Below, one piece after another: positions 15,246 to 58,935 of a stretch of DNA of 64,000 nt. Position 1 is the stretch's first letter, and each line of letters opens with the position of its first letter. The stretch is from Lachnospiraceae bacterium (GTDB taxonomy: Bacteria > Bacillota > Clostridia > Lachnospirales > Lachnospiraceae). A program made the position numbers and the translations under genes. The DNA lies in assembly GCA_017434885.1 (NCBI GenBank), contig JAFSGE010000031.1:52968-116967 (forward strand), given 5' to 3'. The notes under the pieces are model-generated. The model saw nothing but the letters and a program-made list of their open reading frames with translations. It was not told where the DNA came from and ran no database searches.

Positions 15246-15273
15246 AAATAAAAAGAGAGACGAGGAAAACAGA

Positions 15274-15777
15274 ATGGAACTTTGGGATATTTATGACAAA
15301 AACAAGCAAAAAACAGGACGTACCATGAAGAGAAATGACTGGTGTCTTAAGGATGATGAATATCATTTGACGGTACTGGGAGTAATTGTAAGACCGGACG
15401 GTAAATTTCTGATTACACAGCGAGTGATGACAAAGTCATGGGCTCCCGGCTGGTGGGAGGTTTCCGGCGGCGGTGTTATGGCGGGCGAGGAATCGGAGGA
15501 TGCCGTAAAGCGTGAAATTTTGGAAGAGACAGGACTTGATGTAAGCGGATGTGAAGGTGGTTATGTTTTCAGCTATCACAGGGAAAATCCCGGGGAAGGC
15601 GATAACTATTTTGTGGACATTTACCGTTTTGTTATGGATTTCGATGAGAGTGATGTAAAGGTGCAGGAAGCAGAAGCTGCCGGATTTAAGCTGGCAACTG
15701 TCGAGGAAATTAAGGAATTGGCAAAGCAGGGAATTTTCCTGCATTATGACAGCATTAAACAAGTGTTTGAATTGTAA
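15274..15777 (+). CDS. NUDIX hydrolase
   Basis: The Nudix box is 'GGGVMAGEESEDAVKREILEETGL'. Confidence 0.9.
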   Translation: MELWDIYDKNKQKTGRTMKRNDWCLKDDEYHLTVLGVIVRPDGKFLITQRVMTKSWAPGWWEVSGGGVMAGEESEDAVKREILEETGLDVSGCEGGYVFSYHRENPGEGDNYFVDIYRFVMDFDESDVKVQEAEAAGFKLATVEEIKELAKQGIFLHYDSIKQVFEL

Positions 15778-15793
15778 TCACGGAGGACAAGGT

Positions 15794-17722: not shown

Positions 17723-17824
17723 AAAATTCATCAAAGTTTTCTGGTGAACAGAGTGGAAAGTGGTATATTAATTTGTTATAATCATCGTTAAAGTATTTGA
17801 TTACACTGAAAAGAGGGAAAAACA

Positions 17825-42038: not shown

Positions 42039-42111
42039 TGCATCAAAAACGCAAAATGTAAATTTTCAAAAAAAAAAACAAACCTATTGCGTGTCTGAGG
42101 GATTAATTTAG

Positions 42112-42139
42112 GGTGACGGTACGAGCCGTCACCTTTTTG
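42112..42139 (+). terminator. Rho-independent terminator after the vWA gene
   Basis: The stem 'ggtgacgg'/'ccgtcacc' has a 6-nt loop and a T5 run. Confidence 0.8.
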
Positions 42140-43147: not shown

Positions 43148-43179
43148 AAGCACACGGTACATTTGTACGGTGTGTTTTT
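43148..43179 (+). terminator. Rho-independent terminator after the SBP gene
   Basis: The stem 'cacacggtac'/'gtacggtgtg' (one mismatch) is followed by a T5 run. Confidence 0.7.
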
Positions 43180-43222
43180 GAGGATTATAAGCAAAAGACA
43201 AAAGATACAGAGGACAGTAATT

Positions 43223-43573
43223 ATGAGTATGGTAGGGAAAATGATTTTGGAGGAATTCGTAGAAAACCGTTCTGTTTACCTGGAACTGGGGGATGTGGTC
43301 CATAACCGGTTAGAAGAGTTGGTTAAGGAAGCAGGATTATCTATTCTTGGTATCGAACACCGGATTAAAACGGTAAAAAGTCTTGCAGGAAAGTTGGAGA
43401 GAAAGGGAGACGATTACTATCGGAAACTGGAAGATCTAACGGATTTGGTGGGAGCCAGAATTATTTGTTTTTTTGCCGATGAAGTAGATGTTTTGGGTCA
43501 ACTGGTAGAAAAAAGTTTTCAAATTGACCGGGAAAATTCCCTGATTTGGACGGACACAACAATTAGGAAGTAA
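43223..43573 (+). pseudogene. Truncated RelA/SpoT-domain (small alarmone synthetase-like) gene
   Basis: 'HRIKTVKSLAGKLERKG' and 'LEDLTDLVGARIICFF' match the N-terminal half of the synthetase domain. The frame ends 12 codons after 'IDRENS', so the catalytic Glu-containing strands are missing. Confidence 0.5.
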
Positions 43574-43668: not shown

Positions 43669-43965
43669 ATGACAATTGAAAAGAATCGAAACAATGAAGA
43701 ACTGATAATTGCACCAAAAGGACGTCTTGACACTGTGACAGCCCCTTCTTTGGAAGAAGAATTAAAAGCAAGTTTTGACGGTGTTCAGAAACTGGTATTG
43801 GATTTTAAGGCGCTTGAATATATTTCTTCAGCAGGCCTGCGCGTTCTTCTCATGGCACAGAAAACCATGAATAAGCAGGGGGTTATGGTAATCAGAAATG
43901 TGAATGAGACTATAGCAGAGGTGTTTGAAATTACGGGCTTTGCAGATATGCTTACGATTGAATAA
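43669..43965 (+). CDS. STAS-domain protein (anti-sigma-factor antagonist, SpoIIAA/RsbV-like)
   Basis: The start is moved to 43669 (RBS 'aaaggaga'). 98 aa. 'LVLDFKALEYISSAGLRVLL' carries the conserved phosphorylatable Ser context (Ser53/54), and 'FEITGFADML' is the C-terminal helix. Confidence 0.85.
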   Translation: MTIEKNRNNEELIIAPKGRLDTVTAPSLEEELKASFDGVQKLVLDFKALEYISSAGLRVLLMAQKTMNKQGVMVIRNVNETIAEVFEITGFADMLTIE

Positions 43966-43991: not shown

Positions 43992-46241
43992 ATGAAAAAG
44001 AAAAAGAAAATATCCCAATCTTTTCAAAAGTGGTTATCTGTGGTGATTATGATTGCTTTTTTAGTAACCACGGTATGCCTTTGGGTGATTCAGACAAAAC
44101 TCTCTGAGAATAATGCAATTAAACTGCTGGCACTTAACATTTCTGATGTACGTGAAGATATCATTGATGCATCAGATGAAAATCTTTTAAAACTGACTCA
44201 TGAAATTGCAGAGGAATTAAATCAGACGAATGAGGTTACATCAGAGTTTCTTGAGCAATTGACGGCAAAGTATGATGTGACGGAAATTAATCGCATTAAT
44301 CCCGATGGAATTATAGATGCCAGTACTTATCCGGATTTCCTTGACTATGATATGCGCTCAGGTGCACAGTCGAGTGAGTTTCTGGTACTGCTTTCAGGAG
44401 ATAAGGAGTATGTACAGAGTTATCAGCCGGTTTCGTATGACGATTCCATTTCCCGTAAATATGGTGGTGTGGTTTTGAATAACGGAGGATTTGTGCAGGT
44501 CGGATACGGTTCGGAGCGGTTCCAGAAAGATATTGACGAATTTGTAGTAGGGGTTACCAGAAATCGTCATGTTGGAGAAGGCGGCAGTGTCATTATTGTA
44601 AATGAAGCGTGGAATATTGTCAGTGACAGGCAGGGGAATGAGGGAAAGAATCTTGAAACGGTAGGAGTATGGATAGATAGGGACAAAACACCTGCCGGAG
44701 AAGTGTTTATCGAAACAGTATACGGAGAACCCTGTTATTGTATGTATCAAATTTCGGAAGGGTATCTGGTACTTGCTGTCATGCCTACCGGTGAGGCAGC
44801 ACTTTCACGTAACGTTTCCGTAGGCGTGACAACAGCAATGCAGATTCTGGTGTTTGCTGCATTGTTCGCACTTATTTTCTTTTTAGTAAGACGACTGGTA
44901 GTAGATAATATTTATAAGGTAAATGAGTCTCTTTCGGCGATTTCAGAAGGAAGATTGGACACCACGGTAAATGTCCGTTCTCATGAAGAGTTTAATGCGC
45001 TTTCTGATGATATCAATGCTACGGTAAATACCTTAAAGCGTTATATTTCCGAGGCAGAGGCAAGAATTGATGCGGAACTGGCATTTGCAAAGGCAATACA
45101 GCATTCCGCACTTCCATCTGTATTTCCGCCTTATCCAAATCGCAAAGAATTTGATATTTGGGCAGGAATGTATACAGCAAAAGAAGTAGGCGGTGACTTC
45201 TATGATTTCTATTTTGTAGATGAAGATACATTGGCCTTTTTGGTTGCAGACGTTTCCGGAAAAGGAATTCCGGCGGCAATGTTTATGATGACAGCCAAAA
45301 CCTTTATCAAGAGCTTTGCGGAATCGGGAATGAGTGTAGAAGAAGTATTATCCCATGCCAATGAAAAGTTGTGTGAGGGCAATGATGCCAATATGTTTGT
45401 AACAGCATGGATGGGACTTTTAAATACAAAAACCGGAGTAGTTTCTTATGCAAATGCAGGACATAATCCTCCGTTGGTAAAGCACGGGGATGAAACCTTT
45501 ACTTACTTAAAATCCAGACCCGGTTTTGTTTTGGCGGGAATGGAAGGTGTCCGTTACCGTAAGAATGAAATACAGCTGTTACCGGGTGATTCCATCTATC
45601 TTTATACGGACGGTGTTACAGAAGCTACGAATATAGACAATGAACTCTATGGAGAAGAACGTCTGCTTCATGTCATGAATCAAAAAGCAAATCTGTCTTC
45701 ACAGGAACTTTGTGAAGCGGTAAAAGCAGATGTGGATGCTTTTGTCGGTGAAGCCCCCCAGTTTGATGATATTACTATGCTGTGCCTGAATTACTTTTCA
45801 CCGGATGAAAAAGGAGAAAAGAATAAGAAAGTGAAAGAACTGACCGTAAAGGCTACCGTGGAAAATATTGATGAGATTACGGATTTTATCAATGAACAGT
45901 TAGAAAGCATGAATTGTCCTATGAAAGTACAGATGCAGATAGATGTGGCAGTTGATGAAATCTTTGGAAATATTTGTCATTATGCTTACCCTTTAAGAGA
46001 GGGAGAGGCAACGGTCTTTGTGGAAATGCAGGAAGAAACGCAGGCGGTTGTAATGACCTTTATGGATAGCGGAATTCCATACAATCCGTTAGAAAAGGAA
46101 GAGCCGGATACCACACTTTCTGCAGAAGAAAGGGAAATAGGAGGCCTTGGCATCTTTATTGTAAAAAAAACTATGGATGAGATTTCATACCGATATGAGA
46201 ATGGGAAAAATATTCTTACCGTGAAAAAATATATGAAATGA
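43992..46241 (+). CDS. Membrane sensor: Cache-like extracytoplasmic domain, HAMP, PP2C (SpoIIE-type) phosphatase and a C-terminal SpoIIAB/RsbW-like GHKL domain
   Basis: Two TM helices flank a ~250-aa extracytoplasmic domain. The HAMP segment is 'VNESLSAISEGRLDTTVNVRSHEEFNALSDDIN'. PP2C motifs are 'GGDFYDF', 'ADVSGKGIPAAMFM', 'LYTDGVTEA' and 'DDITML'. The GHKL-like part has 'VDEIFGNICHYAY', 'MDSGIPYNP' and 'GGLGIFIVKKTMD'. Confidence 0.85.
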   Translation: MKKKKKISQSFQKWLSVVIMIAFLVTTVCLWVIQTKLSENNAIKLLALNISDVREDIIDASDENLLKLTHEIAEELNQTNEVTSEFLEQLTAKYDVTEINRINPDGIIDASTYPDFLDYDMRSGAQSSEFLVLLSGDKEYVQSYQPVSYDDSISRKYGGVVLNNGGFVQVGYGSERFQKDIDEFVVGVTRNRHVGEGGSVIIVNEAWNIVSDRQGNEGKNLETVGVWIDRDKTPAGEVFIETVYGEPCYCMYQISEGYLVLAVMPTGEAALSRNVSVGVTTAMQILVFAALFALIFFLVRRLVVDNIYKVNESLSAISEGRLDTTVNVRSHEEFNALSDDINATVNTLKRYISEAEARIDAELAFAKAIQHSALPSVFPPYPNRKEFDIWAGMYTAKEVGGDFYDFYFVDEDTLAFLVADVSGKGIPAAMFMMTAKTFIKSFAESGMSVEEVLSHANEKLCEGNDANMFVTAWMGLLNTKTGVVSYANAGHNPPLVKHGDETFTYLKSRPGFVLAGMEGVRYRKNEIQLLPGDSIYLYTDGVTEATNIDNELYGEERLLHVMNQKANLSSQELCEAVKADVDAFVGEAPQFDDITMLCLNYFSPDEKGEKNKKVKELTVKATVENIDEITDFINEQLESMNCPMKVQMQIDVAVDEIFGNICHYAYPLREGEATVFVEMQEETQAVVMTFMDSGIPYNPLEKEEPDTTLSAEEREIGGLGIFIVKKTMDEISYRYENGKNILTVKKYMK

Positions 46242-46287
46242 TAATGGAACGATGGGTAATTGCAACTTGTTTAGAAGGGAGATTTTT

Positions 46288-47406
46288 ATGACGGCTAGAG
46301 AAAAACTACTACAAATTGAGGATGTATATGACAGGGAAAGCACTTCGGAAATATTTTTGGAAGCGATGAGAGATTGTTTGGCTCATCATATGTCAGGCAA
46401 CGCTTTTTTTAAGAATTATATGGAGAAAGCAGGAGTAAAACCAGAGGATATCAAAACAGAGGACGACCTGGAAAAAATTCCGCCCATTCACGCCAACTTT
46501 TTTAAAAAATACGAGGTGCTCAGTGTGCCGTACGAAGAGATTGTGGAGCATGCAACCAGTTCCGGAACCACCGGACAAAAGAGCCAGATGTTTTTTGACC
46601 AAGATAGCTTCGATTTTGGGAATAACATGGTAAAAAACGAGTTTCGTCATTTTGGATTCCTTTCGGAGGAACAGACCAATTATCTTCTCTTTACCTATGA
46701 GCCGGCGCAGATAAGTAAGGATTTGGGAACCGCTAAAACGGATGTGGGATTACTTAGCTATGCACCGGTAAACGAGACATTTTTTGCCCTTCGCTATAAT
46801 GGTGAAGGACATGATTTTGATGTATACGGAACTATTAAGACTTTAGAAGAATATGAAAAGCAGGGATTACCGGTTCGTATTTTCGGATTTCCTTCCTTTC
46901 TCTATTTTACGGTAAGACAAATGAAGGAAACCGGACACAGACCGCTTCATTTAAATACCAAATCCATGACCATGCTGGGAGGCGGCTGGAAAGGATATGC
47001 TGATAAACAGATACAAAAGAGCGAGTTGTATGCAATGGTAGAAGAGATGCTGGGAATTCCGGCAGAGAATTGCAGAGACGGATATGGTTCCACGGAACAC
47101 TCCGTTCCTTACTTTGAATGCAAAAATCACCATTTCCATATACCGGTGTACAGCAGAATGCTGATTCGTGATGTGAAGACCTTAAGACCGTTACCTTACG
47201 GAGAACCGGGGTTTGCCAATTTTATTACACCTCATTTATTAAGTGTACCTGCCGTGTCGGTTTTGATGGGAGATATGGCAGTGCTGCATGATGCAAAAGA
47301 ATGCGGTTGCGGTATCAAGACACCGTTTATGGAAATTATCGGACGTGCGGGAACCAGCAAAGGAAAAAGCTGTGCAATTACTGCGAGCGAGCTGTTGAAG
47401 CGTTAA
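46288..47406 (+). CDS. LuxE-like acyl-protein synthetase (adenylate-forming)
   Basis: The start is moved to 46288 (RBS 'gaaggga'). It has 'SSGTTGQKSQ' and 'GYGSTE'. The C-terminus is 'CGCGIKTPFMEIIGRAGTSKGKSCAITASELLKR', with a Cys followed by exactly 10 residues. Confidence 0.75.
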   Translation: MTAREKLLQIEDVYDRESTSEIFLEAMRDCLAHHMSGNAFFKNYMEKAGVKPEDIKTEDDLEKIPPIHANFFKKYEVLSVPYEEIVEHATSSGTTGQKSQMFFDQDSFDFGNNMVKNEFRHFGFLSEEQTNYLLFTYEPAQISKDLGTAKTDVGLLSYAPVNETFFALRYNGEGHDFDVYGTIKTLEEYEKQGLPVRIFGFPSFLYFTVRQMKETGHRPLHLNTKSMTMLGGGWKGYADKQIQKSELYAMVEEMLGIPAENCRDGYGSTEHSVPYFECKNHHFHIPVYSRMLIRDVKTLRPLPYGEPGFANFITPHLLSVPAVSVLMGDMAVLHDAKECGCGIKTPFMEIIGRAGTSKGKSCAITASELLKR

Positions 47407-47419
47407 TGGAGGAGTGCAT

Positions 47420-49885
47420 ATGGAATTCATTATAAGAGGAAAAAAAGTTGAATTATTGAAAGAGAATTGCTTTCAAGGAATTGAAGAACAAATAATGACC
47501 GATTTGTCGGCAGGCACACCGGATATCCGGAAAGTAATTGCAAGTTTGGATAAACTGGGACATTTTTTGGCAGAAAATGAAACATTTCTCCTTCAAGAGC
47601 TGATGGAACTTGGGCTTTCCAAGGGAGAGGCACTGCAGGTGAAAAAGGAATCTCTTGCCGTTTTATCTGCAGAGGAATTGTTCAAAAAGGTTAAGCGAGA
47701 GTTAGGAGAACTGCCGTTTGAAATAGCAAGGGTAAGTACCCGGGAAGAGGAATTTGAAGGATGGATGCCGGTTGGTGTTTTAGGCCATGTAACCAGTTCC
47801 AATGATGCTATGCTTCCGTTTTTTAGTTCAGTGGAAGGAATTCTTACAGGAAATATTAATGTGATTAAAACTGCAAGCGGTGCTCACAAGGTAGCCATGA
47901 CACTGGTAGAAAAGCTTTGTGAGATAGATGCATCTCTTTGCCCTTATTTTTATGTATTTCCTTTATCCTCTAAAGATGAGAAGTTACTGCAAACCATGTT
48001 TTCCTTATGTAACACCATTGCCGTATGGGGTTCCGATGCAGCGACAGAAGGAGTAAGAAAGCTGGCACCTTCAGGGGTTAAGATTGTGGAATGGGGAAAT
48101 CGTATCAGCTTTGCTTATATAACCAAGAAGGGCAGAACCAAGGAAAGCCTCAGGGGACTTGCAGAGGATGTCTGTGTCAATGACCAGCAGGCCTGCAGCG
48201 CACCCCAGCTTGTTTTTTATGAAGCAGATAACAGAGAAGATTTAGAGCAGTTTGCGCAGGAATTAATGACGGTGTTGCAGGAGGTTTCCGATACCTATCC
48301 CATTCACGAAATCTCACAGGCAGAGCAGGCGGAGCTGACCACTCAAACCCGGTTATGTTACTTGGATGAAGTGATGGGAGAAGCCAGACTGCTTGAAGGA
48401 GAGGGCTGCCGTATTTTTGTGAAGTATGACAATGAGCTTTGTGCTTCGCCGTTATATCGTACGTTGATTGTAAAAGCAATTAAGAGAGAGGATATCATAT
48501 CCGTGCTGCGGCCGTTCCGTTCCTACTTGCAGAGTGTGGGACTTTCCTGCGGCAGAGATGAAATAGCTTTGCTTACCCGCATTTTACTTGCCGGCGGTGT
48601 CAACAGAATTACACAGCCGGGTCTTATGATGGGTGGATATACGGGGGAACCCCATGACGGAGTCTATGCACTCTCTCACTACCTGAAAAGAGTCAGCTTA
48701 ATTTCTGACAATTTGCCCAAAGGAAGTATGTCGTTAAGTGAAATGGAACAGGTGGGAGAGGCTCCCTTTGAGGAGGGAACCCCGTTACTAAAGAAAGATG
48801 ATTTCCCTTCACAAAGAGAGATAAAGGATAAAGGATATCTTTTGCTAAAAAGCGGCGGAAGCTCAGGAAAAGCAAAGTATGCGCCTCATTCCTACGATGA
48901 TGCGCAGACTACCTATGATGAGGGCGCCAGGTTTATTATTGCAGCAGGGGTGGACCCCAAGAAGGATGTGTGTATGAATCTCTTTTATTCCGGAGATTTG
49001 TACGGTGGCTTCATCAGTATTTATGAGGCATTAAAAAAAGCTGATATCATTCAATTGCCAATGACTGCCGAGATGGATATGAAGCATGTGGCGGAAGAGA
49101 TTATTGCAAACCGTGTAAATGTACTTCTTGGAATGCCTACCTACTTACAGCGCCTTTTCCGGGAACAGAAGGAAGCCTTACAGGCATATGGAGGCGTGGA
49201 AACAGTACTTTATGGCGGAGAGCATTTTGACCCTGCCCAGATAACATATTTAAAGGAAACATTCGGCATTAAGAGAATCGGTTCGCTGGCATACGGCTGT
49301 AACGAAATCGGCTCTATGGGATATGCCTGTGAATATTGCGAGGGAAGCATCCATCATGTGGTGGCAAGTAAATATCTTGAGATATTAAAGCCGGATAAGG
49401 ATGAGCCGGTGGAAGAGGGAGAAATCGGAAGGCTGGTCTGGACTCCTGTTGACCAGGAAAATATCAGTATCAAGAGATATGAAATCGGAGATATGGGACG
49501 TTTTGTCAAAGAACCTTGTAAATGCGGACGTATTGCTCCCCGCTTTGAACTGCTTGGAAGATTCGGAGATACCTTTAAATTTGCAACCAACTACGTGAAC
49601 TACACCAGGATTAAATCTGTATTTGCCGAAAAGATGGGATATACCGGCTGGCTTCAGATTCTTTTGAATTATGATACGGTCAGCTGCATGACAATCTGCG
49701 TAGAGAAGGATTTTGCATATAGCGCATGTGATGCTCTTATGATTTTAAAGGAGCAGTATCCTGAAATAGAAGAGTGCATGCGGGATGAAACCGGAAATGT
49801 CCGGATTGTTTTGCAGGAAAGAGATGCCTTTTTGTTAAGCACAGGCGGTGGAAAGGTAAGAAGTGTGGTAGACAGAAGAATTTAA
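47420..49885 (+). CDS. Fusion of a LuxC-like acyl-CoA/acyl-protein reductase (ALDH-like) and a PaaK/F390-synthetase-like adenylate-forming domain
   Basis: The N-terminal ~450 aa has 'GVLGHVTSSNDAMLPFFS', 'NVIKTAS' and 'VNDQQACSAPQLVFY'. The C-terminal ~370 aa has 'KSGGSSGKAKY', 'YGGEHF' and 'YEIGDMGRF'. The preferred ATG is 47420 (RBS 'ggagg'). Confidence 0.75.
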   Translation: MEFIIRGKKVELLKENCFQGIEEQIMTDLSAGTPDIRKVIASLDKLGHFLAENETFLLQELMELGLSKGEALQVKKESLAVLSAEELFKKVKRELGELPFEIARVSTREEEFEGWMPVGVLGHVTSSNDAMLPFFSSVEGILTGNINVIKTASGAHKVAMTLVEKLCEIDASLCPYFYVFPLSSKDEKLLQTMFSLCNTIAVWGSDAATEGVRKLAPSGVKIVEWGNRISFAYITKKGRTKESLRGLAEDVCVNDQQACSAPQLVFYEADNREDLEQFAQELMTVLQEVSDTYPIHEISQAEQAELTTQTRLCYLDEVMGEARLLEGEGCRIFVKYDNELCASPLYRTLIVKAIKREDIISVLRPFRSYLQSVGLSCGRDEIALLTRILLAGGVNRITQPGLMMGGYTGEPHDGVYALSHYLKRVSLISDNLPKGSMSLSEMEQVGEAPFEEGTPLLKKDDFPSQREIKDKGYLLLKSGGSSGKAKYAPHSYDDAQTTYDEGARFIIAAGVDPKKDVCMNLFYSGDLYGGFISIYEALKKADIIQLPMTAEMDMKHVAEEIIANRVNVLLGMPTYLQRLFREQKEALQAYGGVETVLYGGEHFDPAQITYLKETFGIKRIGSLAYGCNEIGSMGYACEYCEGSIHHVVASKYLEILKPDKDEPVEEGEIGRLVWTPVDQENISIKRYEIGDMGRFVKEPCKCGRIAPRFELLGRFGDTFKFATNYVNYTRIKSVFAEKMGYTGWLQILLNYDTVSCMTICVEKDFAYSACDALMILKEQYPEIEECMRDETGNVRIVLQERDAFLLSTGGGKVRSVVDRRI

Positions 49886-49903
49886 GATAGGGAGAGGGTA
49901 ATT

Positions 49904-51157
49904 ATGAGCATTAAAACATATTCATTGGATGAAATCATCCGTTATGCCAGAACACATTCAAAATATTATGCCGATTTATACAAAGATATTCCTGAGGATG
50001 CGCCCTTTGAGGCGCTGCCCCTGATTAATCAGGATGACTTTTGGGCTCATTGTGACCAGGACGGAGGAACAGTGGCGACCGGGAAACAGGCAGACGGACA
50101 GATATTCAAAAGCGGCGGAACCACGGGAGATCCGAAGTACTCTTTATATACTGCGCAGGAGTGGGAAACGCTGTGTGAAGGCTGCGCATCGGTAATGGTC
50201 AAAGGAGGACTGCAAAACGGCACTAAAATTGCCAATCTTTTCTATGCAGGCGGTATGTATGCCAGCTTCTTATATACCTATAGCATGTTATATTTTGCAC
50301 CGGCAAAAACAATTATGTACAATCTTTCCGGAAATGTGTCGGTAGAAGAGATTGTATCCACAATTTTGAAGCATCAGGTCACCTGCCTTGCGGGGGTACC
50401 GTCTATTTTGACCAAAATTGTTTCTTACATTGATGAACATCAGATGACGGGTTTTGCAGTAGATACCGTCTATTTTGCAGGGGAAACCCTGTATATGGAC
50501 CAAAGAGAAAAAATCTCCAGGACCTTTGGAAGAGAGATTTCCTTCCGTTCCTGTTTTTATGCATCCAATGACGGAGGTCCTATCGGATATTTTACAAAGG
50601 ATTGCGGGTTTAACGAGCACAGAGTGATGTCGGAGTTATGTAAACTGGAGCTGATTGATGCTGATACCGGTGAGATTATCACAGAGCCGAACAGACCCGG
50701 AGTGATTTATATTACATCACTTTTTAAAACCTTAATCCCCATGATCCGTTACCCTGCCGGTGATATGGGAGAATATGTGGAGCCGGAAGGGAATGTGGAC
50801 CGTAAATTCAGAATTTTGGGAAGAAGCAATGTAGCTGCCAGAGCCGGTTATGTGACCTTATATCCCCAGGATGTGGGAGAAATTTTGAACAAGTGCGGTA
50901 TTGAATATTATGCCTATCAGATTATCGTAACACATAACGTGCGGGATAAATTTACATTTAAAATTGCGGCAAAACAGGAAAGCGGTCAGAATACAGAAAA
51001 GTTTTTGGAGATGCTGTATCGGGAACGCAGCCTGATGCAGGATGCCCTAAACGACGGTACACTGGATGAACCTGAAGTGGAGTGGTGTAAGGCAACAGAC
51101 CTTGAATACAATGAAAGAACGGGTAAGCTGAAGATTATTATTGATAAGAGAAAGTAA
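49904..51157 (+). CDS. Phenylacetate-CoA ligase-like (PaaK/CapK family) adenylate-forming enzyme
   Basis: 'FKSGGTTGDPKY', 'YFAGETL', 'RYPAGDMGEY' and 'FRILGRSN'. Confidence 0.8.
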   Translation: MSIKTYSLDEIIRYARTHSKYYADLYKDIPEDAPFEALPLINQDDFWAHCDQDGGTVATGKQADGQIFKSGGTTGDPKYSLYTAQEWETLCEGCASVMVKGGLQNGTKIANLFYAGGMYASFLYTYSMLYFAPAKTIMYNLSGNVSVEEIVSTILKHQVTCLAGVPSILTKIVSYIDEHQMTGFAVDTVYFAGETLYMDQREKISRTFGREISFRSCFYASNDGGPIGYFTKDCGFNEHRVMSELCKLELIDADTGEIITEPNRPGVIYITSLFKTLIPMIRYPAGDMGEYVEPEGNVDRKFRILGRSNVAARAGYVTLYPQDVGEILNKCGIEYYAYQIIVTHNVRDKFTFKIAAKQESGQNTEKFLEMLYRERSLMQDALNDGTLDEPEVEWCKATDLEYNERTGKLKIIIDKRK

Positions 51158-51174: not shown

Positions 51175-52596
51175 ATGGATACAAAGAAAATTGCAACCCT
51201 TGAGATATGGAACAATAAGCTTTATGCAGATGCCACACTTGATTTTTTGGATGTGATGATAGGAAGACTGGATATTCCCCACTATCAGGCATTTCGATTT
51301 GTTGTGGGAGAAATTTTGACTAAAAGAATGGAAAGCGCTTATCCGGACAATAGGGGACTAATGTATGTGGATATCTTTTTGAAGGATACTTTTTTTGAGG
51401 TTTCCATCAGAGATAAAGGAGTTCCCGGATGGCAGGACTTTTCCTACGATATGGAAAGTATTGCCAAAAGCAAAAAGGACCTTCGCAATTACATGCTGAA
51501 CCTTTGCGCAGACGGAGTGGGGATTGAAAAGCTTGGAAAAGACGGCCAGAGAATTTTTATCCGGTTAAGAACAGTAAATTCCATACAGTTTAAGCGTCCT
51601 CAGCCTTATAAAGAAATAGAGGTTCTTGACACCAATATCAGTATTCGTCCCGTTGAGACACAGGAGGATATTATTGAAGCCATCCGTTGTATTTACAGTG
51701 AATACGGCTATTCTTACAGCTATGAGAAATTATATTATGTGGATTCCTTTAAGCGGGCACTGGAAAATGGAGAGCTGATGTCATTTTTGGCTGTCAACGA
51801 CCATGGACAGACTGCCGGACACTTCGCACTTTCCTTCTCGGAACAATTCCGTAATATGCCGGAAATTGCATCTACGGTAATACGAAGAGAATTTCGTGGA
51901 CTTGGTCTTATTGACAGGTTTATTGAGTACTGTCTGGAAGTAGCAAAGAAACATAATTTCAGGGCAGTGATGTCTCAACCGGTTGCATTTCATCCCAAGG
52001 CGCAGAAGGCCGTGTTAAAAGCAGGATTTACAGCAAGCTCTTTATTACTTTCTTATATCAGTTCCGGTTTGGAGAGTGAATATAATGAAAACAAAGAAAG
52101 ACTGGATGTATGTGCCTGTGTGAAAATAATTGATGCAACAGCATACAGCAAAATCTATCCGCCTAAGGAACTGACAGAGCTTTTGAAAAAAATCTATGAC
52201 AAACTGGACTGGAACTATGAATTCAGTGATGAGAAGAAATTAAGCGACAGTACGCAAATCAGTGTGGAAAATCAGGAACAGCTCAAGGCTACCAAAATGG
52301 TTCTTCATGAAGCTGCAGAGGATTTTGAAGAGGTGCTGAGGGAAGTTGTTCAAAATACAATCAAAAACAAAAATGAAATGATTGAGTTGGTCATTTGTTT
52401 AAATTCTCCAAGCGCCGAGTATGGATATCAGGTAGCAAGAAGGAACGGCTTGGCGGTTTCGGGAGTGATTCCTGGCAGTGAAAGTGGCGACTACCTGATA
52501 ATGCAGATGCTGGTGGGAGATAAACTGAAATATGATAAGCTGGTGCTTGCCGGTGAATTTGAAGAATTAAAAGAAGATATTCTTAAATTATCATAA
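51175..52596 (+). CDS. GNAT-family acyltransferase flanked by an N-terminal, possibly GHKL-like, domain and an unassigned C-terminal domain
   Basis: The central GNAT core is 'FLAVNDHGQTAGHFAL...VIRREFRGLGLIDRFIEYCLEVAKKHNF'. The N-terminal ~135 aa ('FRFVVGEILTKRMESAY', 'VSIRDKGVPG') loosely resembles an anti-sigma kinase fold. Confidence 0.65.
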   Translation: MDTKKIATLEIWNNKLYADATLDFLDVMIGRLDIPHYQAFRFVVGEILTKRMESAYPDNRGLMYVDIFLKDTFFEVSIRDKGVPGWQDFSYDMESIAKSKKDLRNYMLNLCADGVGIEKLGKDGQRIFIRLRTVNSIQFKRPQPYKEIEVLDTNISIRPVETQEDIIEAIRCIYSEYGYSYSYEKLYYVDSFKRALENGELMSFLAVNDHGQTAGHFALSFSEQFRNMPEIASTVIRREFRGLGLIDRFIEYCLEVAKKHNFRAVMSQPVAFHPKAQKAVLKAGFTASSLLLSYISSGLESEYNENKERLDVCACVKIIDATAYSKIYPPKELTELLKKIYDKLDWNYEFSDEKKLSDSTQISVENQEQLKATKMVLHEAAEDFEEVLREVVQNTIKNKNEMIELVICLNSPSAEYGYQVARRNGLAVSGVIPGSESGDYLIMQMLVGDKLKYDKLVLAGEFEELKEDILKLS

Positions 52597-52608: not shown

Positions 52609-53904
52609 ATGGTAGGCAAGACGATAATGCTCTTTGATGAATTTGGACGGATGCAGATACTGGACGGTATGCGTTATTATAAGAAGACACAGGAAGAGAA
52701 TAATATGCCTCGTTTTGTGATTACCATGACAGAGGAAATTGATAGGGAATGCCTGCAGTATGCAGCCAAGGTTGCCATGCAGAGGTTCTGTGTACAGCGT
52801 TTGGTAGCGGAAGCGGATGAGAGTCGTTTCTATTTAAAACAGAATCTTCAAGAGCCGGTTGTTCATTTAGACAACGGAGAGAGGCATATCGTGTGTAATG
52901 AGAAAAACAGAGGACATATGATATGGATAGGGTATAAAGAATGCGATATTATTGTTGACTTTTTTCATGGTGTTTCGGATGGTATTGGTATGATGCCCTT
53001 TATGGTGCTGCTGTTAACTTCTTATTGCCAAAAAAAATATAGCAATAAAATATACGAAAAGACAGATTTGCAGTCCGGTGGGAATGAAAATGAATATACT
53101 GAGGCTATCCGCTTCTTACCGGAAGAGCCTGTTGTTACAGAGCATTCTTACCGGTGGAAAAGTGCTTTGCAGTTAAAAGGCAGGCAGATGAAGCTAAAGA
53201 GTGGTTGTCATTATTATGTTTTATCTGTGGATGGAGATGCCTTTGATGATTATGTAACAAGAAATGGTTCCTGCCGTTCGGCAGTATTTGCCATGTTTAT
53301 GAATCAGGCAATAGCAGGCATACATAAAGTGGATACAAAACCCATAGTAGCAGCTATGGCAGTCAACGCAAGGAAGGCTTACGGAGCAGAAGAGACCCTG
53401 CAGTGTTGTGTGGCCACGATACCGCTATGGTATGACAGGGAAATAGCAGAACTTTCCGTATCGGAAAGATTAAAAAAGGGCAGAGCAATGGTGTCGGAAG
53501 GCGTAAAGAAGGAATGTGTTCTTTGGGGAGCACAAAAAAAACGGCTGCTCAATCAGAATTTGGAAGCAAATTATCCTACTCTTGAAGAAAAGAGGGCGCA
53601 TTGCAGAAGGCTTACGGATAGCAGTAGCGACAGATACACTTATGGATTAAGTTATCTGGGAAATATCAGTTTTGGGGAGTTTGCAGATGCTTACGTGAGA
53701 GATGTAAGAGTGATGCTCTGTGCAAATACCGTTCCGCTTATTTTGGAAATTTTAAAATGGAAGGGAAAGTATACGATTAGTTATAACACCCATCTGGAAG
53801 AGGATAGATATTTGAAGGAATTGATGGTAATGTTTCAGGAGGCGGGCATTACCTGCAATTGCGTAAAGCAGGAGATGTTTGAAGAGGCATTGGCAGATTT
53901 TTGA
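52609..53904 (+). CDS. HxxxD-motif acyltransferase-like protein (condensation / WS-DGAT / PapA5 superfamily candidate)
   Basis: 431 aa. 'IIVDFFHGVSDGIGMMPF' lies about 115 residues from the N-terminus, as in condensation-type acyltransferases. There are no other diagnostic motifs, and the start is uncertain. Confidence 0.45.
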   Translation: MVGKTIMLFDEFGRMQILDGMRYYKKTQEENNMPRFVITMTEEIDRECLQYAAKVAMQRFCVQRLVAEADESRFYLKQNLQEPVVHLDNGERHIVCNEKNRGHMIWIGYKECDIIVDFFHGVSDGIGMMPFMVLLLTSYCQKKYSNKIYEKTDLQSGGNENEYTEAIRFLPEEPVVTEHSYRWKSALQLKGRQMKLKSGCHYYVLSVDGDAFDDYVTRNGSCRSAVFAMFMNQAIAGIHKVDTKPIVAAMAVNARKAYGAEETLQCCVATIPLWYDREIAELSVSERLKKGRAMVSEGVKKECVLWGAQKKRLLNQNLEANYPTLEEKRAHCRRLTDSSSDRYTYGLSYLGNISFGEFADAYVRDVRVMLCANTVPLILEILKWKGKYTISYNTHLEEDRYLKELMVMFQEAGITCNCVKQEMFEEALADF

Positions 53905-53952: not shown

Positions 53953-54939
53953 ATGAATGAAGAATCTGTAAAAATCCGCGAAATGCTGCTAAAATGTTAC
54001 GGAGTCGATATAGAAGAGGCGAAATGCCATTTTTCTACACAGAATTATGCCTATATATTTCCAAATCATCCGTACATGATTCGTGTCAGTAAGATGCCCA
54101 AAAAGACAAGAAAAGAGATACTCAGTGAGTTAATGTGGGTAGATGATTTGAAGCAATTCAAACAGACAATTTGTGAACCCAGCGTTTCCATCGGCGGAAA
54201 AATTTTGGAAGAATTTGAGATTGACGGTGTGACATATCGGGCAAGTATGTTCCGGACGGCACGGGGAAACGTGCAGGTATCAACGGAAATGACGCCGATG
54301 TTTTTTATTTGCGTGGGAGAATTGTTGGGTATTATTCATCATGTCAGTACGGATGAACGTGAAAACGGGATGAAATTCCAGAGAAAAGAGCTGAAGGATA
54401 TTTTTGCACAGCAGAAAGAAAAGGTGTGGGAAAAATTGAAACCGGAGATTCAAGGCAGGATTACAGCCATTGAAACACAGGTAAATTCACTGCCGCAAGA
54501 CCTTGGAACTTATGGCATTTGCCATGGGGATTTCCAGGCCAATAATTTTTTTGTAGAGGCCAATAATGTCTGGCTGTTTGACTTTGACGGATGTTGCTAT
54601 GCCAATTATCTGTATGATGTGGCAAGCTTTATTTTATCTTGTTTTCTCGGAGGATTTGGTGGCGGTAAGGAGTGCAGTCAGGTTATAGAGGAGATTTTGC
54701 ACTATTTGAAAATAGGCTATGAATTAAATCATAAATGTACAGATGAGTACTGGGAACAATTGCCGTTATTCATAAGTTATCGTGCAGCATATACGGCACT
54801 GATGTTGGCAGAAATAGAAACCTGTGGTGTGGTTTCCAGCCTGGATGAGATTAAAGAATTCTTTTCATTTATTCTTCTTCAGGATGACATTTATGAGGGG
54901 ATTACAAAAGTAATCAGTGAGAGAAAGAGCCGGCTATGA
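53953..54939 (+). CDS. APH/choline-kinase-family small-molecule phosphotransferase
   Basis: The Brenner motif is 'ICHGDFQANNFF' and the Mg-binding motif is 'LFDFDGCCY'. The RBS is 'aagagga'. Confidence 0.8.
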   Translation: MNEESVKIREMLLKCYGVDIEEAKCHFSTQNYAYIFPNHPYMIRVSKMPKKTRKEILSELMWVDDLKQFKQTICEPSVSIGGKILEEFEIDGVTYRASMFRTARGNVQVSTEMTPMFFICVGELLGIIHHVSTDERENGMKFQRKELKDIFAQQKEKVWEKLKPEIQGRITAIETQVNSLPQDLGTYGICHGDFQANNFFVEANNVWLFDFDGCCYANYLYDVASFILSCFLGGFGGGKECSQVIEEILHYLKIGYELNHKCTDEYWEQLPLFISYRAAYTALMLAEIETCGVVSSLDEIKEFFSFILLQDDIYEGITKVISERKSRL

Positions 54940-56690
54940 AAAACAGTTATCTGATAAGAAAACTCTATTTATCATTTTTGATTGTGTCAATTCTTTCCGC
55001 TCTTACTGCTACGGTGGGAATATTGATTGATAATATTATAGTAGGAATGTATTTAGGTGATGTTTCATTAGGCGCTATGGGGATTGTGGGGCCTATCAGT
55101 CTTATTTTTTCCGCAATCGGAAATATATGTTCCGGAGGCGGAACGGCCAGAGCGGCGCAGGCATTGGGAAAAGGTGATGGGGAAGGCTTGTATCAGATTT
55201 TTACAGTTACTGTGCTGTTTGCTGTAGCAGGGGGATTTCTCATTACTATTTTGGGACTGCTGTTCACTCCGCAGCTGGCGGAGCTTCTTGGGGCAAAAGG
55301 AGAATTACTTGAACCATCCATTCAGTATTTGCGGGGCTACTTTCTGGGGGCTGTTCCCACAATTATGCTTACGGCCCTTTCCGGATTTGTAAAGATAGAC
55401 GGTTCACCAAGATTGCCGCTCATATGCATTATAGTAATGTCTTCGGCAAATATTATTCTGGATTTTTTGATGATTCATGCATTTCATCTCGGAATGTTCG
55501 GTATGGCACTTGCAACTACCATCAGTTATGTGGTGGCAGTATTGATTGCCTGCACACATTTTTTTAAGAAGCATTCTACGCTTCGATTGGTAGTGCCAAA
55601 GAAAATGCTTGGCGAGTGGATACAGATGGTTACGACAGGTGCACCTACAGCAATCAGTAGGGTTTGTGATACCGTAAAGGTCATGGTGCTGAATCATATG
55701 CTGGTGTTGTTTGTGGGAGTAGGTGCTGTTACCGCGTTAAGCATAAGGACGCAGGCATATAGCTTTTTTGGTGCATTTTTGATAGGAATTGCCCAGGCGT
55801 CTGTGCCGTTAACCGGATTATTCTACGGAGAAGAAGATATAACAGCGTTAAAGGATATCTTAAAAAATACATTAAAAATCGGACTTTTTATCAATGTAAT
55901 ATTGGCAGTGTTGCTGTTTCTGACAGCACCGTTTTTCGTGGAACTTATGGGTGTTTCCGAGCCGGAAACAAAAAAAATGGCAGTAAATGCGGTCAGGCTG
56001 TTTGCAATCGGCGTGCCTTTTGCGCTGATTAACTACATATTTATGAGCTTTTATCAGAGTACGAAAAGAATAGCCATGGCAACCATGATTTGTGTATTAC
56101 AGTCTTTGGTATATGTGTTACTTATAGCGGTGCTTTTAATTGGAACACTTAAGGAAAGTGGGATATGGCTTGCATTTTTGGCAGCAGAAATATTAACAAT
56201 TTTCACGACAATAGCAGTGATAGCTTATCACTGCAGAAAAATTCCGGGAAAGATTACAGATTTCATGTTGCTAAAAGAAGACTTTGGAAGCAGAGAGGAA
56301 GACCGATTGGAAATTTCCGTAGGGAATGATATGGTGGAACTGGTGAACATATCTGCAGGCATTCATAAGTTTGGCGAAGGGCGCAACATCAGTCAAAAGC
56401 TTCTTAAGGAGTTGGCGCTGTGCATTGAAGAAATCGGTGGCAATGTGATACATCATGCTTTTCGTCCGGGTGAGAAAAAGTGGTTTGATATCATGATTCT
56501 GGATAAAAAGGATTTACTTATTGTGCGTCTTCGTGATAATGGAGCCGCTTTTAATCCGGTTAATTACTGCGATGACTATGATATGAAGAAAGAAAAATAT
56601 GGACTACAGTTAATCCGTAGTATGGCAGACGACATGAAGTATAAGAGAACTTTGGAAATGAATAATATCATTATTACTTTTAAGAAATAA
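54936..56690 (+). CDS. MATE-family efflux transporter fused to a C-terminal SpoIIAB/RsbW-like GHKL domain
   Basis: It has a ~440-aa 12-TM MATE core. The cytoplasmic ~140-aa tail has 'LALCIEEIGGNVIHHAF' (N-box-like), 'LRDNGAAFNP' and 'KYGLQLIRSMADDMKY'. The start overlaps the upstream stop (ATGA). Confidence 0.8.
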   Translation: MKNSYLIRKLYLSFLIVSILSALTATVGILIDNIIVGMYLGDVSLGAMGIVGPISLIFSAIGNICSGGGTARAAQALGKGDGEGLYQIFTVTVLFAVAGGFLITILGLLFTPQLAELLGAKGELLEPSIQYLRGYFLGAVPTIMLTALSGFVKIDGSPRLPLICIIVMSSANIILDFLMIHAFHLGMFGMALATTISYVVAVLIACTHFFKKHSTLRLVVPKKMLGEWIQMVTTGAPTAISRVCDTVKVMVLNHMLVLFVGVGAVTALSIRTQAYSFFGAFLIGIAQASVPLTGLFYGEEDITALKDILKNTLKIGLFINVILAVLLFLTAPFFVELMGVSEPETKKMAVNAVRLFAIGVPFALINYIFMSFYQSTKRIAMATMICVLQSLVYVLLIAVLLIGTLKESGIWLAFLAAEILTIFTTIAVIAYHCRKIPGKITDFMLLKEDFGSREEDRLEISVGNDMVELVNISAGIHKFGEGRNISQKLLKELALCIEEIGGNVIHHAFRPGEKKWFDIMILDKKDLLIVRLRDNGAAFNPVNYCDDYDMKKEKYGLQLIRSMADDMKYKRTLEMNNIIITFKK

Positions 56691-56700: not shown

Positions 56701-58422
56701 ATGGACAATAGATATAAGTACAGGCATAATCCAATTGTAAAGAAAATCTTTATGACAATGTTAGTTCCAACTATTTTTATGAATTTAACAACGGCGATTG
56801 CTTCCATGGCGGATGCAATTATTATCGGACAGTATCTGGATGATGCCTCCTTGTCAGTAGTAACTTTTGCAATGCCTATTTTTTTGATTATTAATGTTTT
56901 TTCCGCTCTGCTTGCAGTGGGAGGATGTATTTCCATGAGTATAGATGCAGGAAAGGGCGATAAAGAGGAAGCCAATAAAGCATTCAGTATTTCAATAGAA
57001 CTGCTTTTAGCTATGGGAGTATTGTTATTGCTTGCCGGTTTATTTTTCAGTCGTACCATTACAGGTTGGCTGGGGGCAGGAGAAGATATATTTGAATCCG
57101 TGGAACTGTATTCCCGGATTATTCTGATGGGCGGACCATTTTTTGTACTGAATACGGGACTTGCATTTTTTGTGAGAAATGACGGAAGACCAACGCTGTC
57201 CATGATGGGAATGTTTGCTTCTATTTTTGTAGATATTACATTGAATTTTGTATTTGTGGGAGTGATGAAAATCGGAGTGGCCGGTGCGGCTTATTCCACA
57301 GTAATAGGAAGCATTGTCAGTGTACTCATTGTATGCACACATTTCTTTCATGCGAAAAATACATTGAAATTCTGTTTTGCTTTTGACAGCATGGCAATAC
57401 GGATTATGAAAAACGGCGGAAGTACAGCCCTGCAATTTATTTACCAGTTTGTTACAGTACTTATTATGAATCATTTCCTCGCGGATTTGTCAGGAACAGG
57501 TGGTGTAGTTGTTTATACAGTGGTAATTAACCTTTCTACAGTGGCCCTTTCGTTGTTTGAAGGAATCAGTCAGACCATACAGCCGATGGTCAGCAATTAT
57601 TTTGGAGAAAAAAGTTATCGGAAAATGAAGGAAGTGTTGCGACTTGCTTTTATTACTACTCTTGTGATATGCGGAAGTATTACTATACTTCTTGAGGCAA
57701 TGCCGCAGTGGATTCCCATGATTTTTGGAATTGAAGATGCAGCGTTGATGGCAAATTCTGTGATTGCGGTACGCATTTATACGGCAGGTATGATTATTAC
57801 AACCGTAAATGTATTGATTAGCTATTATCTTCAGTCTATTGAACAGACCTTAATGTCAGCTGTCATAGTCAGTTTACGCAACTTTGTATTGCTGTTATGT
57901 GCAGTGTTTGTTCTCGGTAAACTGTTCGGAATGAATGGGATATGGGCAGCTTACCCGGTAGCAGAGGTTCTTACATTTTTTGTTGGCATTGGAATGATTT
58001 GTGCCAAACAGAAGAAACTGGAAAAGACCGGAAAGCATATGAACATTTTTTTGTTGGATGAAACGGTTGAATGGAACACGGAATGTTATACATATGATAG
58101 CATGAACGATGCTTTCCCTGATTTTTGCGATATTGTACTTCAATCTTTGGCAAGGAGAGGAGAATGTAGCGGAGAAATGGCACAGGATGCTGAAAACTAT
58201 CTGTTACAGCTTGGAAACGGAATCAAAAAGAAAAAAGGAAATTATATTGAAATGGAAGTAAATGGTCTTGAAAAAACCATCATTATCAGAGACAATTTGA
58301 ATCATGCAGATATTCCTGTAAATATTCAGGATACGATAAAAAGCGATAGTAATTCGGATTATGGTCCTGTGCTTGGATGGAACAGATTGATCCGTAAGGA
58401 AATAAAAAACAAAGAGGTGTAA
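56701..58422 (+). CDS. Second MATE-family efflux transporter with a ~135-aa divergent cytoplasmic C-terminal domain
   Basis: It has a 12-TM MATE core. The tail, 'AENYLLQLGNGI...YIEMEVNGLEKTIIIRDNLNHADIP...DYGPVLGWNRLI', is colinear with the tail of the upstream MATE but degenerate. Confidence 0.8.
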   Translation: MDNRYKYRHNPIVKKIFMTMLVPTIFMNLTTAIASMADAIIIGQYLDDASLSVVTFAMPIFLIINVFSALLAVGGCISMSIDAGKGDKEEANKAFSISIELLLAMGVLLLLAGLFFSRTITGWLGAGEDIFESVELYSRIILMGGPFFVLNTGLAFFVRNDGRPTLSMMGMFASIFVDITLNFVFVGVMKIGVAGAAYSTVIGSIVSVLIVCTHFFHAKNTLKFCFAFDSMAIRIMKNGGSTALQFIYQFVTVLIMNHFLADLSGTGGVVVYTVVINLSTVALSLFEGISQTIQPMVSNYFGEKSYRKMKEVLRLAFITTLVICGSITILLEAMPQWIPMIFGIEDAALMANSVIAVRIYTAGMIITTVNVLISYYLQSIEQTLMSAVIVSLRNFVLLLCAVFVLGKLFGMNGIWAAYPVAEVLTFFVGIGMICAKQKKLEKTGKHMNIFLLDETVEWNTECYTYDSMNDAFPDFCDIVLQSLARRGECSGEMAQDAENYLLQLGNGIKKKKGNYIEMEVNGLEKTIIIRDNLNHADIPVNIQDTIKSDSNSDYGPVLGWNRLIRKEIKNKEV

Positions 58423-58425
58423 AGA

Positions 58426-58935
58426 ATGAAGTGGAAATTATTCTATGTGATAACGGTTATCGGCATGATAACGGTCGGAAGTATTGGCTGCAAAAGCGCA
58501 GATGACAGTACAGCAAAGGAGAAAGATTCGGTTGTTGAGAAAGTAGAAATTTTACCACAGGATAGTACAGGAGAAACAGGTGTAGAAACTGAAAACAGTG
58601 AGTATTATCTGAATGATGCCGGTATTCTGGTGGATAAGGTTGAAGAATTTAAAACCCAGTCCTTCGGGGAGTACTCCTTAACCTATCCGATTCTGGAAGA
58701 AGGTGTGGATGAGGTTGCTGTATATGAATTTGATACCAATGAAAATGTTCACATTGTGCTGGATGCAACCAATATTTATCAGCAGATTAGCCTGGATACC
58801 CAGGGAGATTACGGAGCTGTAGAGCTTGAAGTGGTTGCACAGGCTGAAGGGATTTTGTATATGTATGATGGAGAACGGTATTATATTGAAGATGAAGTAA
58901 ATAATTTGCTGACGATATCAGATTCAATAAAATAA
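58426..58935 (+). CDS. Small lipoprotein of unknown function
   Basis: The lipobox is 'GSIGCKS'. 169 aa. It starts 3 nt after the MATE stop. Confidence 0.7.
   Translation: MKWKLFYVITVIGMITVGSIGCKSADDSTAKEKDSVVEKVEILPQDSTGETGVETENSEYYLNDAGILVDKVEEFKTQSFGEYSLTYPILEEGVDEVAVYEFDTNENVHIVLDATNIYQQISLDTQGDYGAVELEVVAQAEGILYMYDGERYYIEDEVNNLLTISDSIK

Follow-up and report, generated by a model that had tools for sequence, protein, structure and literature searches.

Which product is made by an operon in which three adenylate-forming modules surround a single LuxC-type reductase? The question is raised by a stretch of 64,000 nucleotides from a Lachnospiraceae bacterium (assembly GCA_017434885.1, contig JAFSGE010000031.1, positions 52,968 to 116,967), which is hereafter called the window. 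The operon contains 10 co-oriented genes between window positions 43669 and 58422 (+ strand), with intergenic gaps of 3-48 bp or a 4-bp overlap. An earlier note, made from the sequence alone, had proposed that up to three carboxylic acids are activated, that at least one is reduced to an aldehyde or alcohol, and that an ester- or amide-linked acyl metabolite would fit. The general logic of three activations, one reduction to the aldehyde and an amide-linked product is supported, but the note missed an explanation that already exists, the leupABCD pathway. We consider it probable that the locus is a Clostridial version of this leupeptin-type pathway, a route to an N-acyl peptide aldehyde that is independent of nonribosomal peptide synthetases (NRPS).

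Counterparts of LeupA, LeupB, LeupC and LeupD

The genes that carry this reading are the following:

46288..47406, + strand: LeupA-like LuxE-family acyl-protein synthetase of 372 amino acids (PF04443, E = 8e-34)
47420..48730, + strand: LeupB-like protein, N-terminal LuxC-type thioester reductase domain (PF05893, E = 3e-78, residues 37-422)
48731..49885, + strand: LeupB-like protein, C-terminal PaaK-type ANL domain in the same frame (PF00501, E = 1e-10, residues 465-675)
49904..51157, + strand: LeupC-like stand-alone PaaK-type ligase of 417 amino acids (PF00501 and PF14535, AMP-binding and AMP-binding_C_2)
51175..52596, + strand: LeupD-like GNAT acyltransferase of 473 amino acids (PF00583, E = 2e-6; weak PF13581 match)
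56701..58422, + strand: MATE exporter of the conserved cassette, with a C-terminal domain of ~130 amino acids (PF01554, E = 2e-30)

The four enzyme genes show the order A-B-C-D, with gaps of 7-18 bp between them, and the MATE pumps are encoded downstream. At the level of sequence, orthology and synteny link them to leupABCD, and their catalytic motifs are intact.

Leupeptin is the protease inhibitor acetyl-Leu-Leu-argininal. The genes leupA-D have been named, and "the transporter and leupABCD" described (PMC8283571); a leup-deleted K. oxytoca served as leupeptin-negative strain (PMC11480411), and Photorhabdus and Xenorhabdus are further reported carriers of the operon (Li et al. 2020, as cited in PMC8283571 and PMC11480411). 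When plasmids were searched by tblastn with the fusion protein of the window as query, full-length homologues of 32-38% identity were found on plasmids of Streptomyces, Kitasatospora and Salmonella, and on each plasmid locus examined (including those of Salmonella and Kitasatospora) genes encoding LuxE-like, PaaK-like and GNAT proteins adjoin the fusion homologue. The Salmonella protein led to an 801-residue "acyl-CoA reductase" present in many K. michiganensis genomes. The Klebsiella locus examined (L026) shows genes encoding, in this order, an MFS transporter, a LuxE protein (375 amino acids), a LuxC plus AMP-binding protein (801 amino acids), a PaaK-like AMP-binding protein (444 amino acids) and a GNAT (305 amino acids). 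The published primers leupA_f and leupB_r match this locus perfectly, in the LuxE and fusion genes, and lie 1,235 bp apart, which is the published amplicon size. Therefore, this locus has the true leup operon, in which LeupB, too, is a fusion of LuxC and ANL domains.

The LuxE-like open reading frame (ORF) is listed at 46252-47406, and its real start is probably the ATG at 46288, because an AAGGGAG Shine-Dalgarno sequence lies upstream and homologues are of corresponding length. It shows the motif SSGTTGQKSQ at 46558-46587 (P-loop SSGTTG at 46558-46575), a GGGWK motif at 46978-46992 that contains the loop lysine, and Cys362 at 47371-47373, followed by exactly 10 residues. In the match to P. 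phosphoreum LuxE (PDB 7xc6_E; E = 3e-22, 82 bits) Cys362 falls on the acylated Cys364, and both the lysine of GGGWK and an arginine equivalent to LuxE Arg355 are retained. In LuxE, this lysine and Arg355 have been shown to be essential (PMC9157457). The match to Klebsiella LeupA extends over the full length with 45% identity (E = 4e-122, 348 bits). The tail of the window protein, GRAGTSKGKSCAITASELLKR, and that of Klebsiella LeupA, GRASHNKARSCALAASELIKGN, both show a cysteine tail of the form SCA..A.EL. Like LeupA, the protein belongs to the LuxE family, has no ANL C-subdomain and ends in a cysteine-bearing tail.

The fusion ORF is listed at 47414-49885, and its frame runs without a stop from the LuxC domain into the ANL domain. 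The start is probably the ATG at 47420, with GGAGGAG upstream, which would give a protein of 821 amino acids. The reductase domain shows VNDQQACSAPQ at 48176-48208, with Cys259 (DQQACS) at 48194-48196, and EPHDG at 48647-48661. In the alignment with LuxC (7xc6_A, 55 bits), Cys259 has its counterpart in the cysteine of the DQQAC motif. The active-site residue of LuxC is Cys296 (PMC9157457), with which the DQQAC cysteine is here equated by motif, the numbering of the two not being reconciled. The fused ANL domain shows KSGGSSGKAKY at 48848-48880 (P-loop SGGSSG), RYEIGD at 49475-49501 and the A10 lysine (GGGK) at 49844-49855, and matches PaaK of PDB entry 4r1l with E = 4e-18. The fusion protein is 36% identical to Klebsiella LeupB (801 amino acids) over residues 87-736 (E = 6e-148, 444 bits). 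An alignment of 14 fusion proteins, drawn from Firmicutes, Proteobacteria and Actinobacteria, shows no variation in the cysteine and the EPHDG motif of the reductase or in the P-loop, RY.IGD and A10 lysine of the ligase. The reading of the locus in the earlier note stands on these points: the three ORFs and the motifs that it quoted were all located at its coordinates, the start at 46288 has its Shine-Dalgarno sequence, the cysteine lies at the stated distance from the end of the LuxE-like protein, the uninterrupted fusion and the domain identities agree with Pfam, whose matches are far beyond chance, and both catalytic cysteines align with those of LuxE and LuxC.

The Pfam matches to LuxE and LuxC and the conserved Lux catalytic residues would also suit a Lux-type fatty-acid reductase, which would provide a fatty aldehyde or alcohol for a lipid, a wax ester or a signal, with the additional ligases and acyltransferases forming esters or amides; a downstream protein with an HxxxDG motif could then be a wax-ester-synthase-type enzyme. 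We regard this explanation as very unlikely. Among NCBIfam models, the LuxE equivalog NF052244 reaches 98.8 bits against a cutoff of 550, and the LuxC equivalog NF052251 reaches 72.6 bits against a cutoff of 750. The LuxE-like and fusion proteins match LeupA and LeupB with 348 and 444 bits, and Photobacterium LuxE and LuxC with only 82 and 55. No luxD or luxAB is present: as the earlier note had said, no luciferase-like or LuxD-like Pfam family is found in the window among ORFs of at least 150 amino acids on a plausible coding strand. Furthermore, the HxxxDG protein is absent from all related cassettes except that of the window and that of one close relative.

The stand-alone ligase shows KSGGTTGDPKY at 50108-50140, and its P-loop, RYPAGD and A10 lysine motifs are present. 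It is 33% identical to Klebsiella LeupC over the full length (E = 2e-73) and matches the fused ANL domain with E = 2e-29; each of the two ligases, stand-alone and fused, pairs with its own Klebsiella counterpart. Among solved structures, PaaK comes nearest to the ANL parts, followed more weakly by the PaaK-like ligases AjiA1 and 6siw, and the NCBIfam models FlxY and BagE/FevW give weak matches. These would fit an aryl-acid metabolite, with PaaK-like modules whose activation of arylacetic or aminobenzoic acids would lead to esters or amides in the manner of NatL2, AjiA1 and BagE, one aryl acid being reduced to the aldehyde. Such a product seems unlikely, since the NCBIfam matches are far below the family cutoffs, the operon contains no aryl-acid biosynthetic or paa genes, and full-length orthology and synteny indicate LeupB and LeupC. 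Both ANL modules also miss the threshold of the PaaK equivalog TIGR02155 (53.3 bits, cutoff 646), and no paa genes are found in the window.

The fourth enzyme, the GNAT, has three parts: an N-terminal SpoIIAB/RsbW-like domain (residues ~1-132, nucleotides 51175-51570), a GNAT core (~155-320) with the acyl-CoA motif FRGLGL inside 51886-51909, and an alpha/beta domain at the C-terminus. The AlphaFold2 model (predicted local distance difference test, pLDDT, 85.8) shows the same three domains, and Foldseek relates it to SpeG-type GNATs. The core aligns with LeupD in hhalign with a probability of 95.6% (E = 1.2e-8, 151 columns), and both share the motifs YG..Y.Y..Y and HP.SQ(K/R). The protein falls within the LeupD subtype, with an identity of only ~25% and with different flanking domains.

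On the Salmonella IncF conjugative plasmid CP054717.1, an ORF of 121 amino acids (6284-6649 of the locus) located before the leup-like operon resembles the N-terminus of the Klebsiella MFS protein, and the transporter of this plasmid operon looks truncated. The operon is located among genes of Tn3-family transposases, recombinases and toxin-antitoxin systems. From this mobile-element setting it follows that the pathway is plasmid-mobile in Enterobacteriaceae.

A five-gene cassette of gut Clostridia

At E <= 1e-10, relatives of the fusion protein number more than 1,000. For the best 120, identity lies between 74 and 97% throughout; these proteins have ~821-823 amino acids, come from metagenome-assembled genomes (MAGs) of Lachnospiraceae and Clostridia, and are annotated as hypothetical proteins or aldehyde dehydrogenases. 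At E <= 1e-30, 390 representatives of 50%-identity clusters show the LuxC::ANL architecture, and many of these are full-length proteins of 800-850 amino acids; the organisms looked up include Algicola, Shewanella and Bdellovibrio.

Comparison of contigs from one genome per species recovered 22 loci. These belong to MAGs labelled Lachnospiraceae, Ruminococcus, Oscillospiraceae, Acutalibacteraceae, Ruminiclostridium, Acetatifactor and others; the samples are faecal, from goat, deer, buffalo, the mouse catalogue and other sources. Wherever a locus is of sufficient length for a judgement, it shows genes encoding the LuxE protein, the fusion, a MATE pump, the GNAT and the PaaK-like ligase in this order, except that two of these loci (L002 and L003) have no MATE gene. 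The cassette is conserved in at least 15 Clostridial MAG loci. Genes flanking the cassette are unrelated between loci. Since five genes are shared and the flanks are not conserved, the conserved unit is a five-gene cassette, which the window lineage has rearranged to A-B-C-D and extended.

The MATE pump of the cassette is encoded in the window by the last gene of the operon (56701..58422); its orthologues are 55-63% identical and lie between the LeupB and LeupD genes in at least 13 Clostridial loci. All cassette MATE pumps share invariant RDN and LG.NR motifs in the C-terminal ~130 amino acids (window 58021-58422), a domain that is presumably cytoplasmic. An RsbW-like identity, considered for this domain, is not supported: hhalign against three HATPase_c_2 domains was negative and 13 orthologues gave no Pfam match.

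The fusion is 72-83% identical across families, and the LuxE-like and fusion proteins together are 72-90% identical between MAGs of different families (L001-L015). The GNAT and the MATE pump are less conserved between cassette loci (49-71%). The identity of the fusion across families, together with the non-conserved flanks, suggests lateral spread of the cassette among gut Clostridia. Literature searches on LuxC/LuxE clusters in Clostridia and on leupeptin biosynthesis found no description of a Clostridial clade, in a coverage that leaves out most subscription journals.

Lineage-specific genes and SpoIIAB/RsbW-like domains

The remaining genes of the operon are the following:

43669..43965, + strand: STAS-domain anti-sigma-antagonist-like protein of 98 amino acids (PF01740, E = 1e-17; ATG with Shine-Dalgarno sequence upstream, ORF listed from 43621)
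43992..46241, + strand: membrane PP2C-RsbW sensor protein (PF07228, E = 1e-54; PF13581, E = 2e-21)
52609..53904, + strand: orphan HxxxDG protein of 431 amino acids (HxxxDG motif at 52966-52983)
53953..54939, + strand: APH/choline-kinase-type small-molecule kinase (PF01636, E = 5e-12; 4-nucleotide overlap with the next gene)
54936..56690, + strand: MATE transporter with a C-terminal RsbW-like HATPase_c_2 domain at residues 469-581 (PF01554, E = 1e-36; PF13581, E = 5e-11)

Among the 22 related loci, these five genes are found only in the window and in L019, a 96%-identical relative from a goat-colon Lachnospiraceae MAG. The STAS protein shows a motif with a phosphorylatable serine, ISSAGL, at 43822-43839, and scores 77.6 against TIGR00377 (cutoff 53.45); its homologue in L019 begins at the equivalent Met. 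The PP2C-RsbW protein shows two transmembrane segments around a predicted extracellular domain of ~250 amino acids, a HAMP-like linker (matches to the HAMP region of sensor kinases at residues 277-360), a PP2C (SpoIIE) domain at residues 410-600 and a C-terminal RsbW-like HATPase_c_2 domain at residues 620-746. The components of partner switching are thus together at the locus and co-oriented with the operon: a STAS protein with a phosphorylatable serine, a PP2C phosphatase and HATPase_c_2 domains. Neither the ORFs of the operon nor those of its flanks include a sigma-factor family.

The N-terminal domain of the GNAT is assigned as SpoIIAB/RsbW-like because Foldseek, separately from the GNAT matches, relates the model to the anti-sigma factor SpoIIAB (1l0o_A, E = 9e-7, TM-score 0.70) and because precomputed PF13581 (HATPase_c_2) matches are found in its homologues, in roughly half of 120. 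The LeupD-like proteins of Clostridia all have ~475 amino acids, compared with ~300 in LeupD, and each of them appears to bear such an N-terminal domain. Alignment of the domain with the RsbW domain of the window itself (hhalign) is weak (E = 0.01), and in this weak alignment the N-box asparagine is apparently not kept in the copy fused to the GNAT. Since this asparagine appears lost, the fused domain may be a binding module only.

Since the GNAT and one MATE pump carry SpoIIAB/RsbW-like domains, synthesis and export might be gated post-translationally, and the partner-switching kit as a whole suggests that the first enzyme and an exporter would be the gated steps. One way in which this could work is that the membrane PP2C-RsbW protein sets the phosphorylation of the STAS protein, which docks on the SpoIIAB-like domains of the LeupD-like GNAT and of the MATE pump, so that synthesis and export of a protease inhibitor are gated without a sigma factor; in spore-forming Clostridia without a STAS gene of their own, the fused domain might couple to the SpoIIAA/AB/E circuit of sporulation. 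We put this scheme forward as a speculation and hold it to be rather unlikely. In the Kitasatospora leup-like locus (L024, plasmid NZ_CP108248.1), genes encoding a SpoIIE-family phosphatase and a STAS-domain protein lie at most 8 kb downstream (13275-15935 and 17604-18011), which could be a coincidence, such genes being abundant in Streptomycetaceae, or a recurring association.

The STAS and PP2C-RsbW proteins and the RsbW-like domains of the GNAT and the MATE pump could also be taken as signs of a regulatory or protein-modifying system, in which the GNAT acetylates proteins under STAS/PP2C control and the ANL and reductase domains supply or remove the acyl donor. This is highly improbable: the STAS and PP2C genes are found only in the window and L019, while the enzymes travel together across the cassettes; a dedicated efflux pump favours a secreted small molecule; and the core of the GNAT is LeupD-like. 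A role in anti-phage defence was rejected as well, PADLOC models being silent on the STAS, PP2C, GNAT, HxxxDG, kinase and MATE proteins apart from one insignificant match of the kinase.

The kinase shows the motifs HGDFQANN at 54523-54546 and DFDG at 54580-54591. The HxxxDG protein has no Pfam, NCBIfam, PADLOC or PDB sequence match (armadillo matches are noise) and no relatives in a JGI metagenome scan; its single-sequence AlphaFold model (pLDDT 32) was not used. By its one HxxxDG motif, it may be a condensation/CAT-type acyltransferase. It lies outside the conserved core. The earlier note had counted both downstream acyltransferases as part of the pathway, which agrees with the place of the GNAT in the core but does not extend to the HxxxDG protein, found only in the window and L019 and without a detectable homologue or family.

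A strong terminator is located 5' of the operon at 42110-42135, and the terminator scan found none of comparable strength within it. The count of promoter-like sequences is not higher than in shuffled sequences, and the window contains no Rfam matches and no tRNAs. The operon is flanked by ordinary chromosomal genes: those encoding a vWA protein, a solute-binding protein and a 5'-nucleotidase are close by, and those encoding SecA, prfB and Tex are farther off. Just 5' of the operon, the window shows a 136-amino-acid remnant (43163-43573) of a RelA_SpoT-family gene (small alarmone synthetase-like). L019 shows at 3412-6149 a full RelA_SpoT-family gene of 384 amino acids, together with genes encoding an HD-hydrolase-like protein (168 amino acids) and a membrane acyltransferase-like protein (359 amino acids). 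Upstream of the operon, ~2.3 kb of L019 are missing from the window, with the blastn join at window 43530-43539. Immediately after the last MATE gene there is an ORF of 169 amino acids (58426-58935) without a Pfam match, in a region of which ~400 bp (58424-58828) are absent from L019.

Elsewhere in the window, a +1 programmed frameshift site of the classic form, CTT TGA C, is present in prfB (release factor 2, 34677-35797) at 34757-34763; the ORF list gives the downstream frame only (34784-35797, TTG start, PCRF and RF-1 domains). A gene encoding a PD-(D/E)XK nuclease-family transposase (PF12784) is located at 20768-21886 on the minus strand, in a stretch (~20-26 kb) where the GC skew falls towards zero and the genes change to the minus strand.

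Proposed route and comparison with known systems

By analogy with the leup pathway, the product is likely an N-acyl peptide aldehyde, and leupeptin itself is unlikely. The LeupD-like GNAT would N-acylate the first amino acid from an acyl-CoA. The two PaaK-type modules, the LeupC-like ligase and the fused domain, would each activate a carboxylate as its adenylate and join it to the amine of the amino acid that follows, so that an N-acyl dipeptide acid and then an N-acyl tripeptide acid would be assembled without carrier proteins. The LuxE-like LeupA would adenylate the terminal carboxylate and hold the acyl group as a thioester on its own Cys362, and its swinging C-terminal tail would hand it to Cys259 of the LuxC domain, where reduction with NAD(P)H would give the aldehyde; a MATE pump would export the product. 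The three ANL modules would thus be accounted for by two peptide-bond ligases and a LuxE-type activator that feeds the reductase. The acids activated are most likely, on the same analogy, the N-acylated forms of an amino acid, a dipeptide and a tripeptide; given the leupABCD match, these N-acyl acids are likelier substrates than the fatty, aromatic and amino acids in general that the earlier note had envisaged. Suzukake, Umezawa and colleagues (1979-81) reportedly found in Streptomyces an acetyl-leucine synthetase, ATP-dependent peptide synthetases and a reductase of leupeptin acid that requires ATP and NADPH; the four proteins would provide just these activities. For the last step, adenylation by LuxE, self-thioesterification, transfer to the LuxC cysteine and hydride transfer have been worked out for LuxCE (PMC9157457). 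We infer the bond assigned to each ligase, the identity of the residues and of the acyl group, and a role of the RsbW-like domains in regulation.

Several points weigh against the proposed pathway. Substrate specificity is not fixed by identities of 33-45%, and the product may share neither its acyl group nor any of its residues with leupeptin. The GNAT appears only distantly related to LeupD (~25% over ~150 residues) and has a different domain make-up. The role given to each gene follows from domain logic, and the partner-switching genes are adjacent to the enzymes in this lineage only. Moreover, a preprint ascribes the leupeptin of Streptomyces roseus to an NRPS cluster, and therefore leupeptin production by leup-like loci of other phyla is not proven.

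The presence of an NRPS-independent leup-type cassette in gut Clostridia of several families, where it is common, and the fusion of anti-sigma-like domains to a biosynthetic enzyme and an exporter, of which the window is a natural case, are what is new here; the chemistry is already explained by the leup precedent. Peptide aldehydes of gut Firmicutes have so far been known from NRPS pathways, and the leup pathway has been tied to Gammaproteobacterial pathogens. Leupeptin-like peptide aldehydes potently inhibit cysteine and serine proteases of host and microbes. [quoted passage not shown] The cassette has probably been overlooked by rule sets centred on NRPS and polyketide synthases, and its five genes make it a compact target for heterologous expression.

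Of the known systems, the SpoIIAA/SpoIIAB/SpoIIE and RsbV/RsbW/RsbU modules share with the window a STAS protein with a serine motif, a PP2C phosphatase and an RsbW-type HATPase_c_2 domain. The window locus differs in having no sigma factor and in showing its RsbW-like domains fused to a phosphatase, a GNAT and an efflux pump. Guo et al. are said to have described, in Cell in 2017, di- and tripeptide aldehydes made by NRPS of gut Clostridia, and ruminopeptin. These reportedly share with the product proposed here the niche and the predicted class, as cell-permeable inhibitors of cysteine and serine proteases that cyclise to pyrazinones. They are said to be made by thiotemplated modules with a terminal reductase domain, whereas the window shows free-standing ANL ligases and a LuxE/LuxC relay. 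The LuxCDE complex (PDB 7xc6; PMC9157457) shows the same acyl relay, which ends with reduction by NADPH to an aldehyde, with the thioester Cys ~10 residues from the C-terminus and the key residues conserved; in the window, LuxD and luciferase are absent, LuxC is fused to an additional ligase, the scores are far below the equivalog cutoffs, and the substrate is most likely an N-acyl peptide instead of myristate. The closest likeness is to Klebsiella leupABCD. The window proteins are only 25-45% identical to the Klebsiella Leup proteins, and the product may differ. The exporter is a MATE pump with an extra C-terminal domain in the window and an MFS pump in Klebsiella, and the LeupD protein of the window has gained an N-terminal SpoIIAB/RsbW-like domain and shows a different C-terminal domain. 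The window lineage has added genes encoding the STAS protein, PP2C-RsbW, a second MATE pump with an RsbW-like domain, the APH kinase and the HxxxDG protein. Most Clostridial loci show the order A-B-MATE-D-C, while the Klebsiella leup operon shows A-B-C-D. Window and Klebsiella have in common the four orthologous enzymes and their order, a dedicated exporter, and the absence of a carrier protein and of NRPS.

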